From a virus (lineage: Duplodnaviria; Heunggongvirae; Uroviricota; Caudoviricetes): 37,215 nucleotides of DNA. Shown one piece after another: positions 5,045 to 21,429 of this stretch (positions are counted from its first letter, which is position 1; the number at the start of each line of letters is the position of its first letter). Under the pieces are notes generated by a model, which saw nothing but the letters and a program-made list of their open reading frames with translations, ran no database searches and was not told where the DNA came from. The translations under genes were made by a program, and so were the position numbers. The DNA lies in the IMG/VR virus record IMGVR_UViG_2541047928_000009, positions 1 to 37,215 of that record. One strand, given 5' to 3'.

Positions 5045-5151
5045 ACCATGAAATCAAAAATCAAATCGCTACTGGTCGCTGGTTATAACCACGGCTGGTT
5101 AAGTATTTCGTTTGTCGATTTCTGGTTTAAAAATCTCAATCTGAGGGAATC

Positions 5152-7032
5152 ATGAGGCCAAGTGAACTTAGCGACCTGCTTTGGGCGCAGGTTGACAGTG
5201 TGGCTCCGCACCTGTTGCCAAATGGCAAGAAAGAGGGGCATGAGTGGGTTGCCGGTAACATCAACGGTGACAAGGGAAACAGCCTTAAGGTCAACCTTAG
5301 CGGCAAGAAAAAATGGGCTGATTTCGCTGAGGGAGACGGCGGTGACATGCTTGATTTGTGGATGGCATGTCGTGGAATTAACCTGCATCAGGCTATGCAG
5401 GAAGCGAAAGCATTTCTCGGTATCAAGGATGACGATCACCATTTCGATGCCAGACGTGAGAAGAAATTCTCCAGACCTGATCGCAAGAAAATCGCCCGCT
5501 ACGTTACCAGAACAGAATCCCATCTTGAGTACCTGCAATCGCGTGGCATATCGCCAGAAATCGTAAAGCGCTACGAGGTTGTCAGCGGCAAGGTGTGGAA
5601 TGGAGAGCGGGAACTGGATGCTCTGGTGATTCCGTACAAACGCGATGGTGAGTTGTTGCAGGTCAAGCGAATCAGCACTGAGCGCCCGGACGGGAAGAAA
5701 GTCATTATGGCAGAAGGTGATTGCGAACCTTGCCTGTTCGGATGGCAGGCTCTGGACGCTGGCGTGAGGGCGGTTGTGCTTTGCGAAGGCGAAATTGATT
5801 GTATGAGCTATGCGCAATACGGCATCTCGGCGTTATCCGTGCCGTTTGGTGGCGGGAAAGGCGCTAAGCAACAGTGGATTGAGTTTGAGTATCACAACCT
5901 CGACAGGTTTGAGGAAATATTCATCTCGATGGACGTTGATGATGTTGGTCGTGAAGCCGCAAGGGAAATCGCAAGCCGACTCGGTGAACATCGTTGCCGT
6001 CTTGTTACTCTGCCGTACAAAGACATCAACGAATGCCTGATGAACGGTGTTACCGAGGATGAAATCTGGCAGTACATCGGCACGGCATCCTACTTCGATC
6101 CTGAAGAACTCTACAGCGCGCGAGAGTTTTACCAGGACACTATCAACGCTTTCTACGGCAAGCAGCAGTATCTGTTTAATCCACCGTGGGAATCTCTGGC
6201 AGATAAATTCCAGTTCCGTGAGGCAGAGTTGACGCTGGTCAATGGGGTGAACGGTCACGGAAAAACGGAGGTTGTCGGGCATATGGCACTTGAGGCAATG
6301 CGTCAGGGTGTGAAGACGTGCATCGCGTCACTTGAGCTGAAGCCTGGTATTCTCCTTAAGCGCCTTACCCGTCAGGCGACGTGCTGCAAGATGCCGCCAG
6401 TGCTGGAAATTGACTCTGCATTTAAATTTTATGACGAAAGACTTTGGGTGTTTGGCCTGACCGGAACGGCGAAAGCCGACAGGCTGATCGAAATATTCGA
6501 CTACGCTCGCCGCCGATACGGGATCCAGTTATTCATCATCGACAGCCTGATGAAATGTGGCATAGGCGACGATGACTATAACGGGCAGAAGGCGTTTGTT
6601 GACTCGATTTGCGACTTCAAAAACAAAACAAACTCCCACGTCATTCTCGTTACTCACTCGCGAAAAGGAGACAGCGAAGAAAAACCAACCGGGAAAATGG
6701 ACGTAAAAGGCTCTGGAGCGATAACAGACCTGACAGACAACCTTTTCATCATCTGGCGTAACAAGGCTCGCGAGAGAGCGTTACAGAGAGTTCAGAGTGG
6801 TGAAAAGATGTCAGAGAAGGACGAACAGCTACTGGCGTCTCCTGCATCTGTTTTGATGCTTGAAAAACAACGTAACGGCGAAGGTTGGGAAGGTGGTGTC
6901 CCGTTGTTCCTTGACGAGCAATCGCACCAGTTCCTGCAACTTGAATCAGGATCGCCATATAGCTACATCGCCAATATGCCGAAATCGGAATATGACGAGG
7001 CGTGGCGACAGGAAAACGTGACGGAGTATTAA
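5152..7032 (+). CDS. Bifunctional DNA primase/helicase (Toprim primase domain plus RecA-fold DnaB/RepA-like ATPase)
   Basis: Toprim motifs VLCEGEIDCMS and ISMDVDDVG; Walker A GVNGHGKT and Walker B LFIIDSL; occupies the position of lambda P. Confidence 0.75.
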   Translation: MRPSELSDLLWAQVDSVAPHLLPNGKKEGHEWVAGNINGDKGNSLKVNLSGKKKWADFAEGDGGDMLDLWMACRGINLHQAMQEAKAFLGIKDDDHHFDARREKKFSRPDRKKIARYVTRTESHLEYLQSRGISPEIVKRYEVVSGKVWNGERELDALVIPYKRDGELLQVKRISTERPDGKKVIMAEGDCEPCLFGWQALDAGVRAVVLCEGEIDCMSYAQYGISALSVPFGGGKGAKQQWIEFEYHNLDRFEEIFISMDVDDVGREAAREIASRLGEHRCRLVTLPYKDINECLMNGVTEDEIWQYIGTASYFDPEELYSAREFYQDTINAFYGKQQYLFNPPWESLADKFQFREAELTLVNGVNGHGKTEVVGHMALEAMRQGVKTCIASLELKPGILLKRLTRQATCCKMPPVLEIDSAFKFYDERLWVFGLTGTAKADRLIEIFDYARRRYGIQLFIIDSLMKCGIGDDDYNGQKAFVDSICDFKNKTNSHVILVTHSRKGDSEEKPTGKMDVKGSGAITDLTDNLFIIWRNKARERALQRVQSGEKMSEKDEQLLASPASVLMLEKQRNGEGWEGGVPLFLDEQSHQFLQLESGSPYSYIANMPKSEYDEAWRQENVTEY

Positions 7033-7061
7033 ATGGCCATCTACATCACTGAGCTAATAAC

Positions 7062-7093
7062 AGGCCTGCTGGTAATCGCAGGCCTTTTTATTT
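7062..7093 (+). terminator. Rho-independent terminator after the replication genes (tR2-equivalent position)
   Basis: Hairpin AGGCCTGC-(8 nt)-GCAGGCCT followed by TTTTTATTT. Confidence 0.65.
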
Positions 7094-7121
7094 GGGGGAG
7101 AGTAATTGGAGGATTTAAGAA

Positions 7122-7337
7122 ATGAGTACGATAGCTGAGCTTGTCAGGGCTAATTTTCGTGAAGAGTTGGCGCGTTGGTATCGGTATCGTTCATCGTCCA
7201 GTTTGCCGCTTGATGAGTTGTATGAGCATTCACCTGCCGCACGACGCTATCCGCGTGACCGTGTTCTTCGGCGGTTGTTCAGACTCAACAATGAGTTTCA
7301 GCGCAACAGAATAATCCGGAGTCTGGATTTAAAGTGA
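7122..7337 (+). CDS. Hypothetical nin-region protein (71 aa)
   Basis: ORF with a GGAGG-like RBS; no family recognised. Confidence 0.45.
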   Translation: MSTIAELVRANFREELARWYRYRSSSSLPLDELYEHSPAARRYPRDRVLRRLFRLNNEFQRNRIIRSLDLK

Positions 7338-7347
7338 AGGAGTGAGC

Positions 7348-7530
7348 ATGAGCGAGCAAATATTCAGAGAGATTAAGCCACGGTTTTATCGCAAGGTAAG
7401 GGTAGTTTATCAGGACGAAAACAAGACCTGTGCATACGCCATTCATAATGGTCGGTGGTCAGTGTTCGACACCAAAAACTTCGAGAAGAACTTCGAGAGG
7501 ATTAAGGGTGATGAGGAAACTAACATTTGA
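7348..7530 (+). CDS. Hypothetical nin-region protein (60 aa)
   Basis: ATG at 7348 with an AAGGAG RBS; end overlaps the ninB start. Confidence 0.45.
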   Translation: MSEQIFREIKPRFYRKVRVVYQDENKTCAYAIHNGRWSVFDTKNFEKNFERIKGDEETNI

Positions 7531-7951
7531 ACTAAGAAGCCCCATCCATCAGCAGAACGCCATTCAAGCTATCCAGCAAATCCTTCCAGACCCAACCAAA
7601 CCAATCGTAGTAAGCATTCAGGAACGCAACCGCAGCTTAGACCAGAATCGAAAGCTTTGGGCTTGCCTTGGTGACGTCTCTCGTCAGGTTGAATGGCATG
7701 GGCGCTGGCTGGATGCAGAAAGCTGGAAGTGTGTGTTTACCGCAGCATTAAAGCAGCAGGACGTTGTTCCTAACCTTGCCGGGAATGGCTTTGTGGTAAT
7801 AGGCCAGTCAACCAGCAGGATGCGTGTAAGCGAATTTGCGGAGCTATTAGAGCTTATACAGGCATTCGGTACAGAGCGTGGCGTTAAGTGGTCAGACGAA
7901 GCGCGACTGGCTCTCGAATGGAAAGCGCGATGGGGAGACAGGGCGGCATGA
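7511..7951 (+). CDS. ninB: NinB (Orf) recombination mediator
   Basis: [68 protein letters not shown]... matches lambda NinB as I recall it. Confidence 0.85.
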
Positions 7952-8130
7952 GACGACAGCGACGAAGTTTCACCGACATAATCTGCGAAAACTGCAAATA
8001 CCTTCCAACGAAACGCTCCAGAAATAAACCCAAGCCAATCCCAAAAGAATCTGACGTAAAAACCTTCAATTACACGGCTCACCTGTGGGATATCCGGTGG
8101 CTAAGACATCGTGCGAGGAAAACAAGGTGA
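7948..8130 (+). CDS. NinD/NinE-family small zinc-ribbon-like protein (60 aa)
   Basis: [60 protein letters not shown] resembles a conserved lambdoid nin-region protein; start overlaps the ninB stop; I am unsure whether it is NinD or NinE. Confidence 0.65.
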
Positions 8131-8240
8131 TTGACGTGATGATTTATTCGGGGCTATATTCCTCACACGCCAGCAAAATCTGGCGTCGGGATTGGAACCC
8201 CGATAATCATCATGGCGCATACCGCGTTAGCGGTTTTTTT
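8131..8240 (+). ncRNA. Candidate small structured RNA or tRNA-sized cloverleaf-like element: sigma70-like promoter, nested hairpins, intrinsic terminator
   Basis: TTGACG-(17-18 bp)-TATATT at 8131-8160; hairpins CGCCAG/CTGGCG (8168-8185) and TCGGG/CCCGA (8186-8203); 8 bp long-range pairing TGATGATT (8137-8144) with AATCATCA (8205-8212); terminator ACCGC-GTTA-GCGGT-TTTTTTT at 8221-8240; the supplied ORF 8085..8324 runs through this terminator. Confidence 0.35.
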
Positions 8241-8405
8241 ATGCGTAAAGCACTGCTACACCCAAATTATGGTGGGGCGTGCGGGGGAGTCGTAAGACTC
8301 GCCGGATTCCATGGTGACCGGTAGTTCCAACCCTGTACGTCTCACCACCCAATGATTGGAACCAGACGGTGGTGAGTATCCTTAACCTTTAAGGGAACTA
8401 TCACC

Positions 8406-8597
8406 ATGACAAACTTACCCCATGACTATTACGTCAATCTCGTAAAGATCCTTCTCAAGAAAGCCTCATACGCCGATAAACTCCGCCTGGCTGAAATAAT
8501 CGAGCGCGAAGCTATGCGCATCGCCAGCAACGATAACGCTGTTTCTGACGCAAAAATCTCCCTCGTAACCAAAGTAGTTATGGGAGGTGCAAAATGA
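8406..8597 (+). CDS. Hypothetical nin-region protein (63 aa)
   Basis: ORF with ATG preceded by an AAGGGAA RBS-like sequence; stop overlaps the next gene start. Confidence 0.45.
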
Positions 8598-9280
8598 AAA
8601 CGCTTCCGACCGTTAACACCCTACAGCCTATCCTGCATAATCAGATTCCAGTAATCACAACTGAGCTACTCGCCCGCCTTTATGGAACAGAAGCAATCCG
8701 TATACAGCAAAATCACCATGAAAATAAAACTCGGTTCATTGAGGGGAAGCACTTCTTTAAAGCTGTTGGTGATGAACTCAAAAATTTGCGACTAGTTTTA
8801 AACGAGTCACAAAATGAGGTACAAATTTCCCCCAAAACTCGCTCTCTCATCCTCTGGACAGAACGCGGGGCTGCACGTCACGCTAAAATGCTTGAAACTA
8901 ACCAAGCGTGGGATGTGTTCGAACGGCTGGAAGACTGCTATTTCAGCCAGTGCGAGAAAAATACTGGCAAACAAGAGAAGAAGCCCAACGGGCTTTCCGC
9001 AAAAGAAACAGACAGCCTTGTATGGCTGTGGGATTATGCCAACCGCTCACAGGCATTGTTCCGTGAGTTGTATCCCGCATTAAAACTGATTCAGTCTGGC
9101 TATTCCGGCATATGCCACGACTACGGCTATGAGTTCTCGTATATCATCGGGAGGGCGAGGGGCGTTTTAATTAATCACACGCGGGATATAGATATTTATG
9201 AGCCTGACGGGCCGACGAACCTTCTGGCATGGGAAAGGCTTAAGAACAAAGAGTTGCCGCCTTCACTGCATCGCTACTGA
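8594..9280 (+). CDS. ORF6N/KilA-N-like domain protein (putative antirepressor-like regulator)
   Basis: N-terminal segment [46 protein letters not shown]...[30 protein letters not shown] resembles ORF6N-type domains; assignment from memory only. Confidence 0.5.
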
Positions 9281-9348
9281 CAATTGACAACTTAACAAAC
9301 CCAGCTTCGGCTGGGTTTTTTATTGCTGAATTTTCAATATGAGAGGAC

Positions 9349-10077
9349 ATGACAATGAATGAGCTGATAAATAGCAACGTCATCAAAATGACAAGCATTG
9401 AAATCGCTGAGTTGGTGGGAAGCCAACACGGTAATGTCAGAATATCAATAGAACGTCTGGCAAAGCGTGGGGTGATTCAACTTCCTCCAATGCAAAAAGT
9501 TGAAAATAAACAAACAATTAGCCCTAACAAATTCACAAGCGTGTATATATTCGAAGGCGAACAAGGTAAGCGAGACAGCATTATTGTCGTCGCTCAGTTG
9601 TCGCCGGAATTCACCGCTCGTCTTGTTGACCGTTGGCGAGAACTCGAAGGGGCAACCGCGAAAATACCACAAACCTTTTCTGAGGCATTGCGCCTTGCGG
9701 CCGACCTTGAAGACCAGAAGGCTGAACTGGAGAAACAGCTTGCTCTCGCAGCACCTAAAGTTGAGTTTGCCGATCGCGTTGGCGAGGCCAGCGGAATTTT
9801 GATTGGAAACTTTGCAAAGGTTGTTGGAATTGGTCCAAACAAACTGTTTGCGTGGATGCGCGATCACAAAATCCTTATTGCTTCAGGTTCCCGGCGCAAT
9901 GTGCCAATGCAGGAATATATGGATCGCGGCTATTTCACAGTGAAAGAAACAGCGGTCAACACAAATCACGGAATACAGATATCGTTCACCACAAAAATCA
10001 CCGGGCGTGGTCAACAGTGGCTGACCAGAAAGCTGCTCGATAACGGAATGCTGAAAGTAACAGGGGAGGCTGCTTAA
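9349..10077 (+). CDS. Phage antirepressor, Rha-like N-terminal domain plus KilAC/ANT-like C-terminal domain
   Basis: N-terminal SIEIAELVGSQHGNVRISIERLAKRGVI (Rha-like); C-terminal FADRVGEASGILIGNFAKVVGIGPNKLFAWMRDHKILIA (KilAC-like). Confidence 0.65.
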   Translation: MTMNELINSNVIKMTSIEIAELVGSQHGNVRISIERLAKRGVIQLPPMQKVENKQTISPNKFTSVYIFEGEQGKRDSIIVVAQLSPEFTARLVDRWRELEGATAKIPQTFSEALRLAADLEDQKAELEKQLALAAPKVEFADRVGEASGILIGNFAKVVGIGPNKLFAWMRDHKILIASGSRRNVPMQEYMDRGYFTVKETAVNTNHGIQISFTTKITGRGQQWLTRKLLDNGMLKVTGEAA

Positions 10078-10367
10078 TGGCTAACCTACGCAAAGAAGCG
10101 CGCGGCAGAGAATGTCAGGTACGTATTTACGGCGTATGCAATGGCAATCCTGAAACTACAGTTCTGGCACATTACCGGATGGCTGGAATTTGCGGAACGG
10201 GAATGAAACCTGACGACCTGATCGGCGCATGGGCTTGTAGTGACTGCCACGCGGAGATCGACCGACGCACAAGGATTCTCGACAACAAAGACGCCAGACT
10301 TTACCACCTCGAAGGCGTGATCAGGACGCAGGCGATACTGCTGAAGGAGGGGAAGATTAAGTCATGA
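10077..10367 (+). CDS. YbcO-like (DUF1364) Cys-rich nin-region protein, putative nuclease
   Basis: 96 aa with CQVRIYGVC...CSDCH cysteine motifs; same size and position, immediately upstream of rusA, as DLP12 ybcO. Confidence 0.6.
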   Translation: MANLRKEARGRECQVRIYGVCNGNPETTVLAHYRMAGICGTGMKPDDLIGAWACSDCHAEIDRRTRILDNKDARLYHLEGVIRTQAILLKEGKIKS

Positions 10368-10726
10368 ACGAATATCAGTTTGTGCTTCCATACCCGCCGT
10401 CGGTGAACACCTACTGGCGAAGACGGGGAAGCCAATACTACATCAGCGATAAAGGCCAGAAATACCGAAAAGACGTTCAGCAAATAATCCGCCAACTCAA
10501 GTTAGACATTTTCACCAAATCAAGACTCCGCATCAAAGTCATCGCAGACGTTCCAGACTCCCGCCGCCGCGACCTCGACAACATCCTGAAAGGTTTCCTC
10601 GACTCCCTTATCCACGCCGGATTTGCGGAAGACGACGAGCAATTCGATGACATTCGCGTAATTCGTGGTGTGAAAGTACCAGGCGGACGGCTTGGAATAA
10701 AAATCACCGAACTGGAGAACGTATGA
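10364..10726 (+). CDS. rusA: RusA Holliday junction resolvase
   Basis: PPSVNTYW...RRRDLDNILKGFLDSLIHAGFAEDDEQFDDIRV...GGRLGIKITE matches E. coli RusA motifs, including the RRRDLDN catalytic region. Confidence 0.85.
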   Translation: MNEYQFVLPYPPSVNTYWRRRGSQYYISDKGQKYRKDVQQIIRQLKLDIFTKSRLRIKVIADVPDSRRRDLDNILKGFLDSLIHAGFAEDDEQFDDIRVIRGVKVPGGRLGIKITELENV

Positions 10727-10863
10727 ACAAAGCATTCGAACGATATATGCGCCAGCGTTATGGCAATCGCTATGACCTGACGCGAGATGTTGAAGGTTTC
10801 TACTGTAGTGAAATTGTGAAACGAATGTTTGAAGTTTGGTGTCATTGCAAAGGATGGGAGGTC
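10723..10863 (+). CDS. YlcG-like small protein (46 aa)
   Basis: Short ORF between rusA and Q, start overlapping the rusA stop; the DLP12 order ybcO-rusA-ylcG-quuD is mirrored here. Confidence 0.4.
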
Positions 10864-10865
10864 TG

Positions 10866-11480
10866 ATGCGGCTAACTCCAGTATTCAGCATGGTTAACTT
10901 CATTAATGACGCGCACTTTCGCCGCGTATGGAGACACCCGAAGAAAACCATCAACTCTAGCCAGAAAGCATGGGTTCATTACATGTTACAGGTATGGGGC
11001 AAGGTTAATACCGGAGATTGCTCTCCAGGTGGTGCAATTAACGTTATCGGTCGTCTGATGATTCGCAGTCAGTGGAGCGATGACAAGGCTAAGCAGATAG
11101 AGTCTGTCGTCATGCGCCTGTACGAAGAAGATGGGCTGCGCGGAGATGAGCTATACAAGAAAGCTCGCGAACTGGTCATTCCTCAATCATCGTTTAGCCA
11201 CATCATCACTCTCGCCAAAGAATCAGATGATGCGGCTTTCGTTGAACGTGTGATGGTTAAAACGTTTCACCGTGAAAGCCCTGTCCGCGATGTAGCTATT
11301 AAGCGATATTGCAATCGCAATTGCACGCAAGATATAGCCAGGATTATTTCTTATATAACAGGTGCTGATATTCAGTATTGTCGTAAGCGAGTGGTGTGGT
11401 GTGAGAAAGTGCTGGAGTCAGAAATGTTTTATGCAATGAAACGAGAATTGGAGAAAGAATTTCCATTAATAGCGGCCTGA
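10866..11480 (+). CDS. Q: Late gene antiterminator Q (phage 82 / QuuD-like type, not lambda Q type)
   Basis: Position immediately upstream of a pR'/tR' unit and the lysis genes; about 204 aa, Cys-containing; start chosen at the ATG at 10866 after GGAGG. Confidence 0.65.
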   Translation: MRLTPVFSMVNFINDAHFRRVWRHPKKTINSSQKAWVHYMLQVWGKVNTGDCSPGGAINVIGRLMIRSQWSDDKAKQIESVVMRLYEEDGLRGDELYKKARELVIPQSSFSHIITLAKESDDAAFVERVMVKTFHRESPVRDVAIKRYCNRNCTQDIARIISYITGADIQYCRKRVVWCEKVLESEMFYAMKRELEKEFPLIAA

Positions 11481-11640
11481 ACTGAAATAATTTTGTAAAT
11501 GCGTTGCTTCCGAGAAATGAAAGTGGTATTTTTTGTATATGCTCGGAGCAAAAGCGAACTGAGCAGTGAAATTGAAATCCTGATTTCCCCGGTCGTCGAT
11601 AATATTTAGGGTCGACATACTGGCTAGATTAGGTAAGAGC
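11481..11640 (+). promoter_or_regulatory. Putative late promoter pR' and Q-utilisation (qut) region
   Basis: Immediately downstream of Q; TTGCTT-(17 nt)-TATTTT-like promoter elements near 11503-11531; the terminator lies about 190 nt past the Q stop, matching the lambda 6S RNA unit length. Confidence 0.4.
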
Positions 11641-11668
11641 CTCGGCAGAAACGTCGGGGCTTTTTTGT
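11641..11668 (+). terminator. Rho-independent terminator tR' (late terminator overridden by Q)
   Basis: Hairpin CCUCGGC-agaaac-GUCGGGG followed by CUUUUUUG. Confidence 0.65.
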
Positions 11669-11996
11669 TTGCATAACAGGTAAGAGCATTGAACCCGCAG
11701 ACCTCGCGGAATTGGTGAAAGGTGCCGCGCAGTGCTCTTATCGTTGTGGTGAATGCGCAGGCTGATGCGCGAAAGACATTGCAGCTATTGCGGAAAAGAG
11801 CTGTTCGGCGGGGCAATTAAACGCCCGTGAGAGTCTGAAATAACCGCAAGCCGGAGATCAGCACCGGTCGCCACAATCCAAACTGAGCCGTAGCCACTGG
11901 CTGTCCTGAATTCATCAGTGATAGTTACGCTGCGGCCTTCTTTTTTCCCTTCCCAATATAAGAACTACGCAATCCGTTACTGGCGGAGGCGTTGCT

Positions 11997-12212
11997 ATGA
12001 AATCAATGGACAAAATCTCAACTGGCATTGCCTACGGCACCTCCGCAGGCAGTGCTGGCTACTGGTTTTTACAGTGGCTTGATCAGGTCAGTCCGTCACA
12101 GTGGGCTGCGATTGGTGTACTGGGGAGTCTGGTTCTGGGCTTCCTGACTTATCTGACAAATCTGTACTTCAAAATCAGAGAAGACAAGCGTAAGGCTGCA
12201 CGGGGAGAGTAA
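11997..12212 (+). CDS. S: Class II holin / pinholin, phage 21 S21-like, with dual-start motif (Met1 and Met4)
   Basis: [71 protein letters not shown] matches S21 as I recall it; 71 aa. Confidence 0.85.
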
Positions 12213-12216
12213 TTCA

Positions 12217-12567
12217 ATGACTCAAAACTATGAACTGATTGTGAAAGGGATCCGCAATTTTGAGAATAAAGTTACGGTAACTTTAGCGTTACGGGACAAA
12301 AAACGCTTTGACGGCGAAATTTTTGACCTGGACATCTCGCTGGACCGTGTTGAAGGTGCCGCGCTGGAGTTTTATGAGGCAGCAGCCAGAAGGAGCATCA
12401 GACAGGTCTTCCTGGATGGCGCTGCCGGGTTATGTGAAGGGGATGAGCAGTCGCCGGAAAAGCGCCCCATAATTTTAGAGGCGCAGAATGTGTGGATAAC
12501 CTACAAAGGAAAGCTACCAGGAAGAATTACTGGTTCTCTGAAGACTCCTCCGGAATCACAACCTTAA
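12217..12567 (+). CDS. Hypothetical protein (116 aa) inserted between holin and endolysin
   Basis: ATG at 12217 with a strong GGGGAGAG RBS, 4 nt after the holin stop; no family recognised; unusual position inside a lysis cassette. Confidence 0.55.
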   Translation: MTQNYELIVKGIRNFENKVTVTLALRDKKRFDGEIFDLDISLDRVEGAALEFYEAAARRSIRQVFLDGAAGLCEGDEQSPEKRPIILEAQNVWITYKGKLPGRITGSLKTPPESQP

Positions 12568-12630
12568 GTCACTGACCGGAACAGATAAACCTGTCCGTGG
12601 GCAGAAACCGATAAATCCTGATAAATATCC

Positions 12631-13164
12631 ATGAACGCAAAAATCAGATACGGCCTGTCGGCTGCCGTTCTGGCGCTGATTGCTGCAGGCTCGTCTGCTC
12701 CTCAAATACTTGACCAGTTTCTGGATGAAAAAGAGGGTAACCACACTACGGCATACCGCGATGGTTCCGGTATATGGACCATCTGTCGTGGTGCCACAAT
12801 GGTGGATGGTAAGCCCGTCATACCGGGAATGAAGCTGTCGAAGGAAAAATGCGACCAGGTTAACGCTATTGAACGTGATAAGGCGCTGGCATGGGTGGAG
12901 CGCAATATTAAAGTACCACTGACCGAACCACAGAAAGCGGGTATAGCGTCATTTTGTCCCTATAACATTGGCCCCGGTAAGTGTTTCCCGTCGACGTTTT
13001 ATAAGCGGCTGAATGCCGGTGATCGTAAGAGTGCATGTGAGGCGATTCGCTGGTGGATAAAAGATGGTGGGCGCGATTGCCGCATACGTTCAAATAACTG
13101 CTATGGACAGGTTATTCGTCGTGACCAGGAAAGCGCATTAGCCTGTTGGGGGATAGATCAGTGA
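12631..13164 (+). CDS. R: SAR endolysin (T4-lysozyme-like muramidase with N-terminal signal-anchor-release domain)
   Basis: N-terminal Gly/Ala-rich weakly hydrophobic segment [21 protein letters not shown]; catalytic E-x8-D-x5-T spacing in [16 protein letters not shown]; pairs with the pinholin. Confidence 0.75.
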
Positions 13165-13628
13165 GCAGAGTCGCCGCGATTATTTATGCTCTGGTTATCT
13201 GCATCATCGTCTGCCTGTCGTGGGCGGTCAATCATTACCGTGATAACGCCATCGCCTACAAAGAACAGCGTGATAAAAAAGTCAGTGAGCTGAAGCAGGC
13301 GACCGCCACCATTACTGACATGCAGCAACGCCAGCGTGCTGCTGATGTACTCGATGCTAAATACACGAAGGAGTTGGCTGATGCGAAAGCTGAAAATGAT
13401 GCTCTTCGGCGCAAGCTTGATAATGGTGGTCGGGTGCTCGTCAAAGGAAAATGCTCTGTGCCATCCTCAGCCGAAACCTCCAGCGCCTCCGGCATGGGCA
13501 ATGATGCCACCGTCGAACTCTCTCCAGTTGCTGGACGAAACGTTCTCGGTATCCGGGACGGAATCATCAGAGACCAGACAGCACTGAGAACGCTTCAGGA
13601 ATATATCAGGACGCAATGCCTTCGATGA
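13161..13628 (+). CDS. Rz: Rz i-spanin
   Basis: GTG start overlapping the endolysin stop; N-terminal TM segment ([28 protein letters not shown]) and coiled-coil region resembling lambda Rz. Confidence 0.8.
13381..13587 (+). CDS. Rz1: Rz1 o-spanin lipoprotein, embedded in the +1 frame of Rz
   Basis: [22 protein letters not shown] lipobox-like signal followed by a Pro-rich segment [11 protein letters not shown], like lambda Rz1. Confidence 0.75.
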
Positions 13629-13803
13629 TAGAGATAATTTTACTCATCATCCTTCACATCTGGCTCTGTAGACAGGGTGGTGATCACTTCTGGAGTGAAT
13701 CCAGATTAAACATCTCATTGCTGATGCTTAAAGTTGAGCATTTGGCGCGCGGTAAGGGGCTGCGTTTAGATAAGAGCCAGTCATCACAAACACTAGGATT
13801 TAG

Positions 13804-13828
13804 CCTCGCATTCGCGGGGCTTTTTATT
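13804..13828 (+). terminator. Intrinsic terminator-like hairpin plus T-run downstream of Rz
   Basis: CCUCGC-AUUC-GCGGGG (one G-U pair) followed by CTTTTTATT; it lies inside the supplied ORF 13616..14134, arguing that the ORF's N-terminal part is not coding. Confidence 0.5.
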
Positions 13829-13846
13829 GCAACAAAGGTAAAGACG

Positions 13847-14134
13847 ATGGATGAAGAATATCGTAAAGACCTGCAACTGTGGTTTGGTCTTACGCATGCG
13901 TCGTTCTGCGTGATGCCGCGAGTATTCATGGAGGCTATGCCTCCAGAATGGCAAGAGAAGATGGCTCAGTTGCTTTTTGAGTATAGCGACACGATCAAAA
14001 CGGATGTCTGCGGAGTTCACAGCTGTTTTGTTACTGCCAAAGACGGCAACAACCGCTTTATGAGGATGCCAGAAGATATTCTGAACTATCGTCATCCTCG
14101 ACGTGAATTCATCGAATCATTTCTGAAGAAGTAG
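13847..14134 (+). CDS. Hypothetical protein (95 aa) downstream of the lysis genes
   Basis: ATG at 13847 preceded by AAAGGTAAAG; Cys/His-containing; no family recognised; the longer form from 13616 was rejected because of the internal terminator. Confidence 0.45.
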   Translation: MDEEYRKDLQLWFGLTHASFCVMPRVFMEAMPPEWQEKMAQLLFEYSDTIKTDVCGVHSCFVTAKDGNNRFMRMPEDILNYRHPRREFIESFLKK

Positions 14135-14485
14135 CCATTACAAAGCCTATCTACGGGTGGGTTTGATAATGGCTTATACCCTGCACGGGATAACTTAACT
14201 GATATCCCTTTTAACGGATAAACGGAGCCAACAATGGCAGAGAATGTCGGCATTATGGCAGTGAAATTTGGATAAATCGGGGATTAGAAAGATAGAGGCG
14301 AGCCGGTCAGGTAGAAATGAATCAGGCTCAAAGTGAAGCGGAAAAGGTCTGTGGCACAAACTGATGCTGCCATAATTACAGCCTGATGACTTGTGGAATG
14401 AAACATGTTGAACCTCCTTAATTGATGTGATTCGAGTGAGGAAGGCATTCTGTCCTTCTATAGTGTCCAGTAAATCAAACAGGAA

Positions 14486-14509
14486 GCTTGTCTCACGTGT
14501 GAGACAAGC
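14486..14509. promoter_or_regulatory. Perfect 24 bp palindrome GCTTGTCTCACGTGTGAGACAAGC (CACGTG core), candidate protein-binding site or structure
   Basis: Directly visible; 11 bp arms around a GT centre; flanked by further inverted repeats at 14520-14552 (GAGTTGTA/TACAACTC and AACTCTT/AAGAGTT). Confidence 0.5.
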
Positions 14510-14628
14510 CTCTCCATTAGCGAGTTGTATTGATTACAACTCTTCAAAGAGTTCATTACTGGGTAGATGAAAATAGTTTCACGACGAATGGAGGAGACTA
14601 TGTCGGTGGCTTCTTCATTGGAGTACAT

Positions 14629-15000
14629 ATGCCCCCACGAACCCCAAAAACCTGCCGTGTTCGCGGCTACCGCAATACCACCACAGATCCGTCAGGCTAT
14701 TGCAAAAGCCACAAAAGCGAAGGCTGGAAGCAATACAAGCCGGGCCAGTCCTGTCATCAGCGCGGTTATGGTTCGCGAGGTTGTCCCTCATGCTCGCCAG
14801 TCCTGTGCGGGGGTGGAAGAAACAGGACACTCACACAGATTCTTGTGGGTCGATGCTATTCCTTTCTGGATTATCCCGATGCCATTCATGCAAGGGCTGT
14901 ATAAGACGTTCGTCATGGCTGTCAGGCTGACGGGTCCTCCCGGTGGGGTGGCCTGCCACGGGGCGGGAGCGTCGCGGAAAAAGGCTAGTTTTTGCATTTT
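14629..15000 (+). pseudogene. Decayed HNH endonuclease-like remnant upstream of the terminase genes
   Basis: Frame 1 encodes MPPRTPKTCRVRGYRNTTTDPSGYCKSHKSEGWKQYKPGQS.HQRGYGSRG, resembling the N-terminus of small terminase-associated HNH proteins; downstream HNH-like fragments (VDAIPF for VDHIIP; SRCHSCKG) appear in other frames and zinc/catalytic positions look substituted; from memory, not searched. Confidence 0.4.
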
Positions 15001-15146
15001 TATCGGCCACCATCATCTTTGCACCTTATTGATTATTAATGGTTATTTGTTTTTTGCATGTCGAATTGAGTGTTTTTTGTTCGACATCGAACGCGTTTTC
15101 TTAAAGTTGTTCGCACGATGCATGTTTAAAGCTCTCCGGAGGAAAT

Positions 15147-15638
15147 ATGGATCATGAGTTGAAAAACCTGGTGCTGAATATTAATCAACTGGCGGCTTTA
15201 TCTGGTCTGCACCGCCAGACTGTCGTGGCAAGACTGAAAAACATTCGTCCCGCTGGTGGACATGACAAACTCAAGCTATACCGGTTGACCGATATTCTGA
15301 CTGAATTTATGGGGTTACCACCGCCGGTTGCTGAGGGCGAAATGGATCCACATGAACGCAAAGCCTGGTATCAGTCTGAACGTGAGCGTCTTAAGTTCGA
15401 ACAGGAAACGGCACAACTCATTCCGGCCAGTGATGTCAGACGGGAGTTTGCCATCTGGGCAAAAGCGGTCGTGCAGGTGCTGGAGACATTACCGGATATT
15501 CTGGAACGTGACTGCGGTCTGCAGCCTGCCGCTGTGAGCCGTGTTCAGTCCATTATTGATGATCTGCGCGATCAGATAGCCCTGCGGGTGACCGAAGCAG
15601 GTGCGGATGATGAGGAGGAATTACAGCAGGAGGAGTAA
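15147..15638 (+). CDS. Terminase small subunit (Nu1-like, N-terminal HTH)
   Basis: N-terminal LNINQLAALSGLHRQTVVARLKN resembles the Nu1 HTH; immediately upstream of the gpA-like large subunit, with ATG/TAA overlap. Confidence 0.75.
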   Translation: MDHELKNLVLNINQLAALSGLHRQTVVARLKNIRPAGGHDKLKLYRLTDILTEFMGLPPPVAEGEMDPHERKAWYQSERERLKFEQETAQLIPASDVRREFAIWAKAVVQVLETLPDILERDCGLQPAAVSRVQSIIDDLRDQIALRVTEAGADDEEELQQEE

Positions 15639-17740
15639 TGCTGAATCAGGAAACCGCAAAGGCAGCACGAACCGATTCAGGTTATATCCTTCGCGCACCG
15701 AGACGAATGCGGGTTGCTGATGCCGTTGCTCAGTATATGCGGGTGCCCATGGGGGCAGGGAACTCAGTCCCGTGGGATCCGCTGGTGGCACCGTATGTTA
15801 TTGAGCCGATGAACTGCCTGGCCTCGCGTGAATACGACGCAGTGATATTTGTTGGCCCGGCACGAACCGGCAAGACTATCGGCCTGATTGACGGCTGGGT
15901 GATTTACAACGTGATTTGCGATCCTGCTGATATGCTGATCATTCAGATGACGGAGGAAAAAGCCCGCGAACACTCCAAAAAACGACTCGCCAGAACGTTT
16001 CGCGTCAGCCCGGAAGTGGTCAGTCGCCTGAGTCCGAACAAAAATGACAACAACGTTTATGACAGAACATTCCTTGCTGGTAACTACCTGAAAATCGGCT
16101 GGCCGTCAGTCAATATCATGTCCTCATCAGATTATAAATGCGTCGCGCTGACGGATTATGACCGTTTTCCGGAAGATATTGATGGCGAGGGGGATGCTTT
16201 CTCTCTTGCCTCAAAACGTACCACCACATTTATGTCCAGTGGTATGACGCTGGTGGAGAGTTCCCCCGGCAGGGATGTGAAGGATGTGAAATGGCGACGG
16301 ACTTCACCGCATGAGGCTCCACCAACCACGGGGATCCTGTCGCTCTATAACCGTGGTGATCGCCGTCGCTGGTACTGGCCCTGTCCACACTGTGGTGAGT
16401 ATTTTCAGCCCTGCGGCGATGTGGTTGCTGGTTTCCGTGATATTGCCGATCCCGTGCTGGCAAGTGAGGCGGCTTATATTCAGTGTCCTTCCTGTTCAGG
16501 ACGGATTATGCCTGAACAAAAACGTGAGCTGAACGGACGTGGGGTCTGGTTGCGGGATGGTGAATCCATCAATGCGGATGGCAGTCGTTATGGTGATCCC
16601 CGACGCTCACGTATTGCGTCATTCTGGATGGAGGGTCCGGCAGCTGCTTACCAGACACTCTCGCAACTCGTTTACAAACTGCTTACTGCAGAACAGGAAT
16701 ACGAGACAACCGGAAGTGAAGAAACACTCAAGACGGTTATCAATACCGACTGGGGATTACCTTATCTTCCCCGCGCCAGCATGGAGCAACGAAAAAGTGA
16801 ACTGCTTGAGCAGCGGGCAGAGCCAGTTCCTTCCCGCAGTGTGCCGGATGGCGTTAATTTCCTTGTGGCGACAGTGGATGTGCAGGCGGGACGTCATCGC
16901 CGTTTTGTGGTTCAGGTAACGGGCTATGGCAGCCGTGGCGAACGCTGGATTATTGATCGTTACAACATCACGCAGTCATTGCGCGGTGACAGTGACGGGG
17001 AGAGCCAGCGAATTGATCCGGCCAGCTATCCGGAAGACTGGGATGTCCTGCTGACGGATGTTTTTCATAAAAGCTGGCCGCTGGCCTCCGATCCTTCTCA
17101 ACAAATGCGACTGATGGCAATGGCGGTGGACTCCGGCGGTGAAGACGGGGTCACTGATAATGCCTATAAATTCTGGCGTCGTTGCCGTCGTGATGGCCTT
17201 GGTAAACGTATTTACCTGTTTAAGGGCGACAGCATCCGGCGCGCAAAACTGATCACCCGTACATTCCCTGATAACACCGGACGAACGGGCCGACGGGCGC
17301 AGGCCGCAGGTGATGTGCCGCTCTGGCTTCTTCAGACGGATGCACTGAAAGACCGGGTGAATAACGCGTTATGGCGTGACTCGCCAGGTCCCGGCTATGT
17401 GCATTTCCCTGACTGGCTGGGGAGCTGGTTTTACGACGAACTGACGTATGAAGAGCGGAGCAGTGACGGGAAATGGAGTAAGCCGGGTCGCGGTGCCAAC
17501 GAAGCTTTTGACCTGATGGTGTATGCCGATGCTCTGGTCATTCTGCATGGATACGAAAAGATCCGCTGGCCGGATGCACCGGAGTGGGCGAGCCGGGAAA
17601 CCTGGCTGGAGTGTGTCCAGGACAGTACCGAACCGTCATCCTCACCGGAACCGGTATCCACGCCTGTTAAAAAACAAAAACGGAAGAAAACAGTAACTGA
17701 CGATGTTAACCCCTGGCTGACTTCCGGAGGATGGTTATGA
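15638..17740 (+). CDS. Terminase large subunit (lambda gpA-like ATPase/endonuclease)
   Basis: 700 aa; Walker A-like VGPARTGKT; CPHCGEYFQPCGD zinc-ribbon-like motif comparable to the lambda gpA ACPHCGEEQYLKFGD. Confidence 0.85.
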   Translation: MLNQETAKAARTDSGYILRAPRRMRVADAVAQYMRVPMGAGNSVPWDPLVAPYVIEPMNCLASREYDAVIFVGPARTGKTIGLIDGWVIYNVICDPADMLIIQMTEEKAREHSKKRLARTFRVSPEVVSRLSPNKNDNNVYDRTFLAGNYLKIGWPSVNIMSSSDYKCVALTDYDRFPEDIDGEGDAFSLASKRTTTFMSSGMTLVESSPGRDVKDVKWRRTSPHEAPPTTGILSLYNRGDRRRWYWPCPHCGEYFQPCGDVVAGFRDIADPVLASEAAYIQCPSCSGRIMPEQKRELNGRGVWLRDGESINADGSRYGDPRRSRIASFWMEGPAAAYQTLSQLVYKLLTAEQEYETTGSEETLKTVINTDWGLPYLPRASMEQRKSELLEQRAEPVPSRSVPDGVNFLVATVDVQAGRHRRFVVQVTGYGSRGERWIIDRYNITQSLRGDSDGESQRIDPASYPEDWDVLLTDVFHKSWPLASDPSQQMRLMAMAVDSGGEDGVTDNAYKFWRRCRRDGLGKRIYLFKGDSIRRAKLITRTFPDNTGRTGRRAQAAGDVPLWLLQTDALKDRVNNALWRDSPGPGYVHFPDWLGSWFYDELTYEERSSDGKWSKPGRGANEAFDLMVYADALVILHGYEKIRWPDAPEWASRETWLECVQDSTEPSSSPEPVSTPVKKQKRKKTVTDDVNPWLTSGGWL

Positions 17741-17949
17741 ACCAGAATGATATCGAAGCCATGATTCAGCGTTATATGGAAGCTGAAATGGCGGTGCTGG
17801 ACGGAAAATCCGTCACCTTTAATGGTCAGCAGATGACCATGGAAAACTTATCTGAGATCCGGCAGGGACGGCAGGAGTGGGAGCGCCGCCTTGCGGCTCT
17901 GATTACACGACGACGGGGGCATCCCGGGTACCGGCTGGCGAGGTTCTGA
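17737..17949 (+). CDS. Head-tail connector protein gpW-like
   Basis: About 70 aa; C-terminal ITRRRGHPGY resembles lambda gpW ...TQRRRGPAGF; ATGA overlap with the terminase stop. Confidence 0.6.
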   Translation: MNQNDIEAMIQRYMEAEMAVLDGKSVTFNGQQMTMENLSEIRQGRQEWERRLAALITRRRGHPGYRLARF

Positions 17950-19457
17950 TGGCAATTCTTGATGATGTGATTGGCGTTTTTTCACCTGGATGGAAAGCGG
18001 CAAGGCTGCGTTCCCGTGCGGTGATCCAGGCTTATGAAGCCGTAAAAACGACGCGGACACACAAAGCCCGACGGGAGAACCGAACTGCCGACCAGCTAAG
18101 CCAGTACGGGGCCGTGTCGTTACGTGAGCAGGCCCGTTACCTTGATAACAACCACGATCTGGTTATTGGTGTATTTGACAAGCTGGAAGAACGGGTGGTG
18201 GGGAAAAACGGGATTATTGTCGAGCCACATCCGGTATTACGCAATGGGGCCATTGCCCGTGATCTGGCAGCGGAGATTCGCACCCGATGGAGTGAATGGT
18301 CTGTCAGCCCGGAAGTCACCGGGCAGTTTACCCGTCCGATGCTGGAACGTCTGATGCTGCGTACCTGGCTGCGCGATGGTGAGGTGTTTGCCCAGATGGT
18401 TTCCGGGCGCATAAACAGCCTGACGCCTTCTGCCGGTGTTCATTTCTGGCTGGAGGCGCTCGAGCCGGACTTTATTCCCATGACCAGTGATGAGAGCAAC
18501 AGGCTGAATCAGGGCGTGTTTGTTGATGACTGGGGGCGTCCCGAAAAATATCTGGTGTATAAAAGCCGTCCCGTATCCGGACGGCAGATGGAAACCAAAG
18601 AAGTGGATGCAGAGCGAATGCTGCATCTTAAATTTGTTCGCCGTCTGCACCAGATACGCGGGACGTCTTTGTTGTCCGGTGTGCTGATCCGCCTCAGTGC
18701 CCTGAAAGATTATGAAGATTATGAGCTGACTGCAGCAAGGATCGCCGCTGCTCTGGGGATGTACATCCGCAAAGGCGACGGGCAGAGCTATGAACCGGAT
18801 GGTAATGGCAGCAAGGATAAGGAACGCGAGCTTACCATTCAGCCAGGCATTATTTACGACGATCTGAAACCCGGCGAAGAAATCGGAATGGTGAAGTCGG
18901 ATCGCCCCAATCCTAACCTTGAAACTTTTCGTAATGGTCAGTTGCGTGCCGTGGCGGCGGGCAGTCGTCTGAGTTTTTCCAGTACAGCGCGCAACTATAA
19001 CGGCACTTACAGCGCCCAGCGCCAGGAGCTGGTTGAATCTACTGATGGCTACCTGATCCTGCAGGACTGGTTTATTGGTGCCGTCACCCGCCCGATGTAT
19101 CGTGCCTGGCTGAAACAGGCTGTGGCATCCGGTGTTATCAGGCTACCCCGCGATCTTGACCGTTCTTCACTGTATACCGCGGTGTATTCCGGACCAGTGA
19201 TGCCGTGGATTGACCCTGTTAAGGAGGCTGAGGCCTGGAAAATCCAGATTCGTGGTGGAGCGGCGACAGAATCAGACTGGGTACGTGCTGGTGGTCGTAA
19301 TCCGGATGATGTCAAACGTCGGCGCAAGGCCGAAATTGATGAAAACCGCAAGCTGGATCTGGTATTTGATACCGATCCGGCCAGTGATAAAGGAGGCAGC
19401 AGTGCCGCAACGAAACGACAGGAGCCGCAGCACACCGACGACCAGTCCGAAGAATAA
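17949..19457 (+). CDS. Portal protein (lambda gpB-like family)
   Basis: About 500 aa, immediately after terminase and W; start at the ATG at 17949 (TGATG overlap); size and position typical. Confidence 0.8.
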   Translation: MAILDDVIGVFSPGWKAARLRSRAVIQAYEAVKTTRTHKARRENRTADQLSQYGAVSLREQARYLDNNHDLVIGVFDKLEERVVGKNGIIVEPHPVLRNGAIARDLAAEIRTRWSEWSVSPEVTGQFTRPMLERLMLRTWLRDGEVFAQMVSGRINSLTPSAGVHFWLEALEPDFIPMTSDESNRLNQGVFVDDWGRPEKYLVYKSRPVSGRQMETKEVDAERMLHLKFVRRLHQIRGTSLLSGVLIRLSALKDYEDYELTAARIAAALGMYIRKGDGQSYEPDGNGSKDKERELTIQPGIIYDDLKPGEEIGMVKSDRPNPNLETFRNGQLRAVAAGSRLSFSSTARNYNGTYSAQRQELVESTDGYLILQDWFIGAVTRPMYRAWLKQAVASGVIRLPRDLDRSSLYTAVYSGPVMPWIDPVKEAEAWKIQIRGGAATESDWVRAGGRNPDDVKRRRKAEIDENRKLDLVFDTDPASDKGGSSAATKRQEPQHTDDQSEE

Positions 19458-19470
19458 TTCCTGGTTCAGG

Positions 19471-21429
19471 ATGCAGGCTGGTCACCAGAGTGACGCGGAT
19501 ATTTATATTTATGACGAGATTGGTTTCTGGGGTGTTACAGCGAAGCAGTTTATCAGTGATCTGAATGCACTGGGCGATATCACCCACATTAATCTCCATA
19601 TCAATTCACCGGGTGGCGATGTCTTTGAAGGCATCGCCATTTTTAATGCGCTGAAAACACATGGTGCGTCCATTACCGTTTATGTCGACGGTGTGGCGGC
19701 GTCAATGGCGTCGGTCATTGCGATGGTGGGAAACCCGGTCATTATGCCGGAAAACACCTTCATGATGATTCATAAACCATTTGGCTTTACGGGCGGTGAT
19801 GCGGAGGACATGCGCACCTATGCCGACCTGCTCGATAATGTTGAGGCGGTTCTGTTACCCGCTTATGCACAGAAAACCGGGAAAACCACCGATGAAATTG
19901 CTGCCATGCTGGCGGATGAGACCTGGATGTCCGGTGCCGAATGTCTGGCACATGGATTTGCTGATCAGGTGACGCCAGCCGTTAAGGCAATGGCATGTAT
20001 TCAGTCAAAACGTACAGAGGAATTTAAAAAGATGCCGGAATCCATTCGAAACATGATTACTCCGCCACGCAACAGTGCTCCACGCGTACAGGATGATGAA
20101 CCTGCAGCCTCCCGGACGCCAGTGCAGGCAGCAGCACCCGTGGTGGATGAAAACAGTATCCGTGCGCAGGTACTGGCAGAGCAAAAAGCGCGTGTAAACG
20201 GTATTAATGATCTGTTTGCCATGTTTGGCGGGCGTTATCAGACGCTGCAGGCTCAGTGTCTTGCCGATCCTGAATGTTCGCTGGAGCAGGCCCGCGAAAA
20301 GCTGTTGAACGAGATGGGGCGCGAGTCCACGCCATCCAATAAAAATACACCGGCTCATATTTATGCCGGTAACGGTAATTTTGTGGGGGACGGGATCCGC
20401 CAGGCGCTGATGGCGCGTGCCGGATTTGAAAAAACCGAACGTGATAATGTCTACAACGGGATGACCCTGCGTGAATATGCCCGTATGTCACTGACTGAAC
20501 GGGGTATTGGGGTTTCCAGTTATAACCCGATGCAGATGGTCGGTGCGGCGTTCACACACAGTACGTCTGACTTCGGTAATATTCTGCTGGATGTTGCGAA
20601 CAAAGCCATTCTGCAGGGCTGGGAAGATGCTCCTGAAACCTATGAACAGTGGACGCGGAAAGGTCAGTTGTCTGATTTTAAAATTGCCCATCGTGTGGGT
20701 ATGGGGGGCTTCAGTGCTCTGCGTCAGGTGCGTGAAGGGGCGGAATATAAATACGTCACCACCGGAGATAAACAGGCCACTATTGCACTGGCGACCTATG
20801 GCGAGCTGTTCAGTATCACCCGTCAGGCCATTATCAATGATGATCTGAATATGCTGACCGATGTCCCGATGAAACTGGGCCGTGCGGCGAAATCCACTAT
20901 TGCCGATCTGGTTTATGCCATTCTGACGTCTAACCCGAAAATCTCCACAGATAATGTAAGTCTGTTCGATAAAGCGAAACATGCAAACGTACTGGAGAGC
21001 GCTGCAATGGACGTGGCATCGCTGGATAAAGCCCGCCAGTTGATGCGCGTTCAGAAAGAGGGGGAGCGTCATCTGAATATTCGTCCTGCGTTCGTACTGG
21101 TACCGACGGCGATGGAGTCTGTTGCTAACCAGGTCATTCGCTCCTCAAGTGTCAAGGGGGCTGACATTAACGCCGGTATTATTAACCCGGTGAAAGATTT
21201 TGCGACCGTTATTGCAGAGCCTCGTCTTGATGATAACAGCCAGACCACCTTCTACCTGGCTGCGTCAAAAGGCTCCGATACGATTGAAGTGGCTTATCTC
21301 AACGGTGTGGATACGCCATATATTGATCAGATGGAGGGCTTCAGTGTGGATGGCGTGACAACGAAAGTGCGTATTGACGCCGGTGTCGCGCCAGTTGATC
21401 ACCGCGGTCTGGTGAAATGTACGGCGTAA
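19471..21429 (+). CDS. Fused prohead protease (ClpP/S49-like), scaffold and major capsid protein in a single ORF
   Basis: N-terminal ClpP-like region (INSPGGDVFEGIAIFNALKTHGASITVYVDGVAASMASVIAM...); a central Ala/Gln-rich linker; a C-terminal about 300 aa region with HK97-fold capsid-like character; single uninterrupted frame of 652 aa. Confidence 0.75.
   Translation: MQAGHQSDADIYIYDEIGFWGVTAKQFISDLNALGDITHINLHINSPGGDVFEGIAIFNALKTHGASITVYVDGVAASMASVIAMVGNPVIMPENTFMMIHKPFGFTGGDAEDMRTYADLLDNVEAVLLPAYAQKTGKTTDEIAAMLADETWMSGAECLAHGFADQVTPAVKAMACIQSKRTEEFKKMPESIRNMITPPRNSAPRVQDDEPAASRTPVQAAAPVVDENSIRAQVLAEQKARVNGINDLFAMFGGRYQTLQAQCLADPECSLEQAREKLLNEMGRESTPSNKNTPAHIYAGNGNFVGDGIRQALMARAGFEKTERDNVYNGMTLREYARMSLTERGIGVSSYNPMQMVGAAFTHSTSDFGNILLDVANKAILQGWEDAPETYEQWTRKGQLSDFKIAHRVGMGGFSALRQVREGAEYKYVTTGDKQATIALATYGELFSITRQAIINDDLNMLTDVPMKLGRAAKSTIADLVYAILTSNPKISTDNVSLFDKAKHANVLESAAMDVASLDKARQLMRVQKEGERHLNIRPAFVLVPTAMESVANQVIRSSSVKGADINAGIINPVKDFATVIAEPRLDDNSQTTFYLAASKGSDTIEVAYLNGVDTPYIDQMEGFSVDGVTTKVRIDAGVAPVDHRGLVKCTA

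Follow-up and report, generated by a model that had tools for sequence, protein, structure and literature searches.

The lysis cassette and the gene inserted in it

The viral sequence IMGVR_UViG_2541047928_000009 (Caudoviricetes; 37,215 nucleotides (nt), analysed at its full length and referred to here as the window) carries a lysis cassette in which a gene for a 116-residue protein lies between the holin and endolysin genes. In a preliminary description of this DNA the cassette was considered to be of the phage 21 type, and the 116-residue open reading frame (ORF) an unassignable interruption of it. We found that the ORF is a member of the YdfR/DUF1327 family, and that both the family and the order holin-ydfR-endolysin (S-ydfR-R) are already known. 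The ORF list and the sequence gave the order holin, ydfR, lysozyme of the signal-anchor-release (SAR) type, and Rz with embedded Rz1, all on the plus strand. All ORF coordinates of the preliminary description were borne out. The features are listed below (aa, amino acid residues).

11997..12212, +, S21-type class II holin (pinholin), 71 aa, MKSMDK start; PF04971, E=1.4e-35
12204..12207, +, Shine-Dalgarno sequence (GGAG) of ydfR, within the holin coding sequence near its 3' end, 9 nt upstream of the ATG; from the sequence
12217-12567, +, ydfR, 116 aa, ATG start, 4-nt gap after the holin gene
12217..12438, +, N-terminal DUF1327 core of ydfR (aa 1-74); PF07041; corresponds to the K-12 YdfR segment reported to bind RNase E
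12439..12567, +, variable C-terminal tail of ydfR (aa 75-116, ...EKRPIILEAQNVWITYKGKLPGRITGSLKTPPESQP) and stop codon; mosaic breakpoint zone
12568..12630, +, spacer between ydfR and the endolysin gene, 63 nt, A/T-rich; no obvious Shine-Dalgarno sequence and no terminator (sequence, scan)
12631..13164, +, endolysin, 177 aa, T4-lysozyme/GH24 type, RrrQ/933W-R subfamily; PF00959, E=2e-24
12649-12711, +, predicted SAR domain, endolysin aa 7-27; hydropathy and composition
13161..13628, +, Rz i-spanin; PF03245, E=9e-29; phrog_13, E=2e-71
13381..13587, +, Rz1 o-spanin lipoprotein, 68 aa, lipobox VVGC; PF06085, E=3.7e-21

The assignment of the 116-aa protein was made by the profile comparison that the preliminary description had proposed: it scored 139.6 bits on PF07041 (DUF1327) against a cut-off of 25 (E=3.8e-41). 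The product name in RefSeq is 'YdfR family protein' (WP_016240726.1), and residues 1-74 are 80% identical to YdfR of Escherichia coli K-12. PHROGs agreed with the Pfam assignments of the cassette and places the protein only in families of unknown function, and no match was found in NCBIfam or PADLOC. The ribosome-binding site described earlier as strong was confirmed as the GGAG at 12204-12207. In the Qin prophage of K-12 the genes are ordered essQ-ydfR-rrrQ-rzpQ/rzoQ, with the same 4-nt junction between holin and ydfR.

Homologs of YdfR were detected by tblastn in 101 phage records, among them 41 of Shiga toxin (Stx) 1a phages, 15 of Stx2c phages, H-19B, YYZ-2008, phage 86, BP-4795, mEp460, and others; an S21-type holin was found in 438 records of the phage collection. 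A search with the full cassette returned holin, YdfR, and lysozyme together under the match in all cases, among the matches listed. DNA similar to ydfR was present in 4349 of 5426 complete E. coli genomes (about 80%), at 8618 places and with up to 10 per genome. A near-full-length copy of the window variant was found in 1904 of the 5426 genomes, and cassette-like DNA overall at 19956 places. The 1.8-kb cassette was 100% identical to chromosomal prophages in several E. coli strains. Given its occurrence in Qin, in phages, and in E. coli genomes, the S-ydfR-R arrangement is routine, and the cassette is an ordinary lambdoid prophage lysis cassette of a kind known from K-12 Qin and H-19B-type Stx phages.

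The synteny comparison suggested in the preliminary description, in which ydfR was absent from phage 21 and present in Qin, thus speaks against an unusual interruption: Qin, H-19B, YYZ-2008, phage 86, and mEp460 all have the same order. The related statement that holin and endolysin genes are normally adjacent holds for phage 21, in which nothing lies between S and R; roughly 80% of complete E. coli genomes carry ydfR-like DNA. The K-12 reference genome has shown this layout for decades, and most E. coli strains and many Stx phages share it, so that finding it here matters little in itself. Homologous cassettes routinely carry the gene, and one half of the refutation named in the preliminary description therefore applies; the other half, a known function, does not, YdfR being among the commonest E. 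coli prophage genes without an established one. In Stx1 and Stx2c phages ydfR shares the late transcript that drives Shiga toxin release.

Among records with an S21-type holin, the presence of ydfR followed phage lineage (41 of 47 Stx1a, 15 of 17 Stx2c, and 2 of 124 Stx2a records). Seven database proteins (P0017, P0031, P0040, P0083, P0092, P0110, and P0119) combine PF04971 and PF07041 in one product. Almost all are single members from one short contig. Real fusions seem improbable, and a frameshift or an assembly error across the 4-nt S-ydfR junction is the probable origin.

The holin scored 121.5 bits on PF04971 (cut-off 26). It is identical to S21 of phage 21 at 70 of 71 positions, including both transmembrane segments, the sole change being K64R, and it has the dual start Met1/Met4 of the phage 21 annotation; the preliminary identification of a pinholin with two starts was therefore correct. 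Following that annotation, the 71-aa form would be the antiholin and the 68-aa form, starting at 12006, the holin. The 99% identity to S21 suggests that the protein forms small pinholes and depolarises the membrane, rather than releasing the endolysin. DNA homology between phage 21 and the window begins upstream of S and ends precisely at the S stop codon.

In the remainder of the cassette the likeness to phage 21 is looser. The endolysin is 94% identical to K-12 RrrQ, 92% to R of phage 933W, and only 33% to R21, a value at which orthology to R21 itself was not accepted. Its catalytic residues E35 (12733-12735), D44, and T50 align with the same positions of R21, with the same E-8-D-5-T spacing, and in both proteins the N-terminus is weakly hydrophobic. 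Residues 7-27 of the window protein consist of Gly, Ala, Ser, or Thr at 52% of positions, and the peak 19-residue Kyte-Doolittle hydropathy of the N-terminus is 1.65. This N-terminus fits a predicted SAR domain of the R21 style. The segment contains no Cys, and regulation would therefore not be of the P1 type. The endolysin may thus work like R21, yet belongs to a different subfamily. The Gly/Ala-rich N-terminus and T4-lysozyme-type spacing described earlier were confirmed; on that ground the protein is a putative SAR endolysin, though not a strictly phage 21-type one. For the cassette as a whole, the label 'phage 21-type' applies in the strict sense to the holin only.

The spanin genes were correctly recognized. 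Rz1 lies wholly inside Rz in the +1 frame, as shown by PF03245 and PF06085 matches together with a frame check. The N-terminus of Rz is hydrophobic, and the architecture is that of an embedded two-component spanin. RefSeq starts Rz at GTG 13161, overlapping the endolysin stop codon; the first in-frame start is TTG 13146. Identity to the phage 21 counterparts is 58% for Rz and 48% for Rz1.

The known cassettes differ at the S/R junction. In phage 21, S and R overlap, and the ribosome-binding site annotated at the S end serves R; the same position in the window serves ydfR. Since ydfR occupies this site, the endolysin gene of the window sits behind the 63-nt spacer, with no visible Shine-Dalgarno sequence. 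In K-12 the holin is 82% identical to that of the window, the ydfR stop codon overlaps the rrrQ start instead of being followed by a spacer, and the spanin is the DUF2514-type RzpQ rather than an Rz. Phage 933W has the order S-R-ant-Rz/Rz1, without ydfR and with ant between R and Rz; its R begins 4 nt downstream of the S stop codon. H-19B, YYZ-2008, phage 86, and the Stx1a and Stx2c phages have S-ydfR-R, the YdfR homolog of the H-19B type being about 63% identical and in the same slot. Inserted genes are tolerated in lambdoid lysis cassettes, as those of 933W and of the H-19B type both illustrate. Because the layouts differ (a spacer in the window, a stop/start overlap in K-12, and a site inside S in 933W and phage 21), the efficiency of endolysin translation may differ as well.

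The YdfR protein and its relatives outside lysis cassettes

Structure prediction, also proposed earlier, gave a beta-beta-beta-alpha fold for the N-domain. The AlphaFold2 model, built with a diverse alignment, had a mean predicted local distance difference test (pLDDT) score of 79 and was consistent across five models, with strands at residues 5-14, 18-27, and 34-43 and a helix at 50-73. In the full-length model residues 68-116 had pLDDT below 50, so that the tail is of low confidence. In the alignment of the whole DUF1327 family every member has Tyr53-Glu54, where the helix begins, and nearly every one has Tyr5. In comparisons with three homologs the ratio of non-synonymous to synonymous substitution rates (dN/dS) was 0.24-0.29 in the N-domain, at dS of 0.4-1.6, and 0.57-0.91 in the tail; the N-domain thus appears to be under purifying selection and the tail less constrained. 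The N-domain ratio and the PF07041 score put the ORF well past what chance would give. The isoelectric point (pI) of the protein is 5.55, and its peak 19-residue Kyte-Doolittle hydropathy is 0.68, with no hydrophobic segment. YdfR is predicted to be a soluble, cytoplasmic, mildly acidic protein. A sequence-profile search of the PDB returned no match, and fold and sequence searches of the PDB and BFVD gave generic, weak matches at most.

The tail is the mosaic part of the gene. That of the window (aa 75-116) is unrelated to that of K-12 YdfR (aa 75-103), and no DNA match to window positions 12417-12620 was found in Qin, phage 21, or 933W. Tails in the family range from 0 to more than 200 aa, and single-linkage clustering merged nearly all of them via shared mosaic segments. 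Variants in the S/R slot had 103, 114-116, 176-183, and 263-287 aa, which points to shuffling of small modules; the 263-268-aa variants are those of Stx1_499 (contig L010, 1501-2292) and phage 86 (contig L009, 1501-2631). An extra convergent gene for a 104-aa protein (phrog_1853) is present in the S/R slot of phage 86; its identification with ES18 gp25 was rejected (E=0.41). A tail module '...EKRPIILEAQ...SLKTPP' was found behind a coiled-coil segment in P0155, which has no DUF1327 core.

When 1.84 billion representative proteins were searched exhaustively with a profile, the YdfR family came to 90 clusters only, so that DUF1327 is a very small family. Its distant stand-alone members are tail-less and have 72-86 aa; those of 72-76 aa revealed by the profile search are 25-35% identical to the N-domain of the window protein. 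Wherever the context could be recovered, no recognisable lysis genes were found beside them. They were found instead at the following places.

Between lambda gpM-like and gpL-like tail genes: Salmonella phages ES18 (gp24) and Oslo, contigs L012-L016
Between the tail assembly chaperone and tape-measure genes: contigs L018 and L019
After a gpI-like gene: contig L004

ES18 gp24 is annotated as 'possible moron; function unknown' and matches PF07041 with E=4e-7. About 27 kb separate gp24 from the lysis cassette of ES18, which is of the P22 type, with gp13 as holin and gp19 as soluble lysozyme. Genes of the gp24 type share the DUF1327 core with the window gene and are likewise co-oriented in a temperate siphovirus late operon; unlike the window gene, they lie among tail genes. 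Contig scans with ES18 gp24 and P0197 gave no match, and hosts of the tail-cluster subgroup are therefore known from Salmonella phages and a few contigs only. Because tail clusters of other temperate phages carry DUF1327 genes, the family behaves as a mobile late-operon passenger. We suggest that DUF1327 is a mobile passenger of temperate-siphovirus late operons that settled at the S/R junction in E. coli lambdoid phages.

Many of the stand-alone DUF1327 genes are followed by a convergent gene for a 79-99-aa protein that belongs to phrog_10490 or is distantly related to it. Such pairs were observed on L006 at 3968-4520 (ES18 gp24/gp25), L004 at 1636-2160, L017 at 93-616, L018 at 5001-5519, and L012 at 5001-5486. 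Three different junctions within lambda-like tail clusters carry such an insertion, and the two genes look like a mobile pair. No phrog_10490-like partner was found in the window, and the idea of a hidden one was rejected.

Late transcription and function of YdfR

The cassette lies downstream of the following features.

10836/10866-11480, +, Q-like antiterminator gene; phrog_753, E=2e-67
11635..11664, +, terminator-like hairpin with T-run, downstream of the Q-like gene; scan, 12-bp stem, 6 G-C pairs

The hairpin at 11635-11664 is a candidate tR', through which Q-modified polymerase would read into the lysis genes. A scan of the plus strand found no sigma-70-like promoter at 11300-14400, and no terminator was found between the holin and endolysin genes (12212-12631). 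The five cassette genes should therefore ride the Q-dependent late transcript, and from the layout they should be co-expressed late.

These results bear on the earlier suggestion that the gene may be a moron on the late transcript. A moron in the strict sense is an extra gene with its own promoter, its own terminator, and deviant base composition. The gene varies in presence as a moron would, phage 21 and 933W having no ydfR at the S/R junction. It lacks its own promoter and terminator, and at 0.479 its GC content is like that of its neighbors S (0.500) and R (0.507); for these reasons it is not a textbook moron. The suggestion holds in the loose sense of a dispensable passenger. The other earlier suggestion, that of a lysis regulator, found no support. 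YdfR did not show the properties of dedicated lysis regulators (lambda S107, S21-71, T4 RI, and P1 LydB), namely a place in the membrane or periplasm or a fixed pairing with one holin, and it is not antiholin-like, since it has no hydrophobic segment, the same holin occurs without it, and its relatives are found away from holins.

An experimental lead on function comes from a study of the K-12 protein. YdfR was found in a bacterial two-hybrid screen, in which residues 1-72 were sufficient (Gopel et al., RNA Biol 2026, PMC13232886). Like RapZ, it gave signals only with RNase E constructs having the catalytic N-terminal half (PMC13232886). Rne(1-598) co-purified with Strep-YdfR, as did a DNase-resistant nucleic acid that was reported as RNA (PMC13232886). 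Since YdfR of the window is 80% identical to that of K-12 over the binding segment, RNase E binding can be proposed for it. No experimental literature on YdfR was found beyond this report; the search term 'DUF1327' returned unrelated genomics alone.

We slightly favor the reading that ydfR is an accessory, non-lysis, cytoplasmic late-operon gene. The part of this reading that concerns RNase E is more tentative, and we regard it as possible without being probable. The gene would borrow the ribosome-binding site at the S end that serves the endolysin gene in phages without ydfR. Its product would be small and soluble, a conserved 72-aa domain of beta-beta-beta-alpha fold being followed by a C-terminal tail that can be exchanged. 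This N-domain may bind RNA, host RNase E (through the catalytic N-terminal half of the enzyme), or both, whereby YdfR would modulate RNA decay late in the lytic cycle, with the variable tail perhaps adding specificity. Lysis itself would proceed by homology to phage 21: S68 would accumulate and trigger, the membrane would depolarise, the tethered endolysin would then be released and refold, and Rz/Rz1 would fuse the membranes. From comparison with phage 21 and 933W, which work without ydfR, this holin and this endolysin seem not to need it. That, together with the placement of the family in the lysis cassette on the one hand and in tail clusters on the other, leads us to look beyond lysis timing; the comparative result narrows the hypotheses on YdfR function in this way.

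A number of observations weigh against this reading. Overproduction of K-12 YdfR altered few transcripts and left growth unaffected (PMC13232886). The link to RNase E comes from an overproduced, tagged K-12 protein, a full-length fusion with a short linker bound the Rne 1-597 construct only, and the authors could not exclude a contaminant holding the RNA (PMC13232886). The tail of the window protein is, as noted above, unrelated to that of K-12, and the hallmarks of a strict moron (promoter, terminator, deviant GC) are absent from the window. Late expression and an effect on RNA decay are what we infer for the window, by layout and by homology.

A role in lysis timing would make YdfR a cytoplasmic regulator produced in fixed ratio with the pinholin through translational coupling, and either binding the basic C-terminus of the holin or tuning triggering or release of the SAR endolysin. 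The gene does lie directly after the S21-type holin gene in all E. coli phage and prophage matches seen, with the 4-nt gap and the Shine-Dalgarno sequence inside S. The N-domain is acidic (pI 5.1) and the holin tail basic, and by taking the strong ribosome-binding site from the endolysin gene the insertion could change the S:R ratio. We still consider such a role unlikely. The same holin (99%, phage 21) and endolysin (92%, 933W) work without YdfR, and YdfR has no transmembrane segment or signal sequence. The distant relatives are in tail clusters, and ES18 has a P22-type canonical holin and a soluble lysozyme. Overproduction of K-12 YdfR gave no growth or lysis phenotype (PMC13232886).

It is likewise improbable that YdfR is a moron of benefit to the lysogen (in superinfection exclusion, anti-phage defence, or stress) that is expressed independently of the lytic cycle. 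Such a gene would sit poorly with the lack of a promoter-like site on the plus strand at 11300-14400 and of a terminator after ydfR, with GC like that of the neighbors and no PADLOC match, and with tail-cluster copies that are co-oriented and tightly packed with late genes. K-12 ydfR was essentially silent under standard growth, with almost no reads (PMC13232886). The same report cites an expression database in which the Qin cluster is upregulated under cold stress (PMC13232886), which would favor a benefit to the lysogen, as would the presence/absence polymorphism of the gene, its mobility between genome positions, the 'possible moron' annotation of ES18 gp24, and the combination of a conserved core with hypervariable C-terminal modules that is typical of conflict genes. 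That the ORF has no function of its own, and is a decaying remnant or a spacer carrying translation through to the endolysin gene, we hold to be very improbable. The tail is variable, of low model confidence, and with its dN/dS of 0.57-0.91 less constrained, many database variants are truncated or fused, and overproduction in K-12 was nearly phenotype-free (PMC13232886). The N-domain, however, has a dN/dS of 0.24-0.29 at dS up to 1.6, its predicted fold was consistent in all five models, and other phage lineages have it in recognisable form at 25-35% identity, Tyr5 and Tyr53-Glu54 being conserved. The reading as an accessory late-operon gene is preferred to these three.

A function in the envelope was also considered. 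An envelope-integrity screen lists the K-12 ydfR knockout as a raw high-throughput score only, and an envelope function drawn from this leak signal was rejected for that reason. Since rrrQ, which encodes the SAR-type lysozyme, immediately follows the disrupted gene, a polar effect would be a simple alternative; a promoter of the kanamycin cassette reading into rrrQ would explain the signal.

A wider proposal is that the YdfR family consists of phage-borne RNase E-docking adaptors, in which the 72-aa module docks and the C-terminal modules (0 to more than 200 aa) give specificities. We regard this as doubtful. If it is true, adaptors made from late operons, beside the pinholin in E. coli phages and within tail clusters in other phages, would redirect RNA decay in the host or shield the long late transcript during the last minutes before lysis. 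Proteins that contact RNase E include the phage-encoded modulators gp0.7 of T7 and Dip of phiKZ, and the host adaptor RapZ; they would be functional analogs of YdfR only if the RNase E lead holds. A consequential contact with RNase E would, if true, constitute a new, widespread route of temperate phages to host RNA decay.

Regions flanking the cassette

Positions 7940-27700 of the window match a lambda-like prophage of strain DETEC-S589 (L002) at 99.9%. RefSeq annotates cI/cro/cII, nin genes, terminase, portal, and lambda-type tail genes on this prophage. Further annotations there are a nucleotide-modification protein of the Nmad5 family and a DUF6932 protein. The early/immunity region of the window (1-7900) is mosaic with respect to the DETEC-S589 prophage, with identity of 87-99% in patches alone.

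Downstream of Rz, an ORF of 172 aa (13616-14134, +) appears to be a chimera, with a match to phrog_11822 over residues 1-50 and one to phrog_3527 over residues 33-172. RefSeq splits this segment into a truncated 'lysis protein' pseudogene (13616-13765) and a 95-aa hypothetical protein (13847-14134). A terminator-like hairpin was found between these two features at 13802-13821.

Upstream of the Q-like gene, two RNA matches above the Rfam gathering score were observed on the plus strand: isrK at 8167-8240 (72 bits) and C4 antisense RNA at 8265-8352 (84 bits). In L002 these matches lie directly upstream of genes annotated as P22AR/KilAC antirepressors. The region 8167-8352 resembles the c4-ant modules for secondary immunity of P1 and P7, here placed in a lambdoid prophage.

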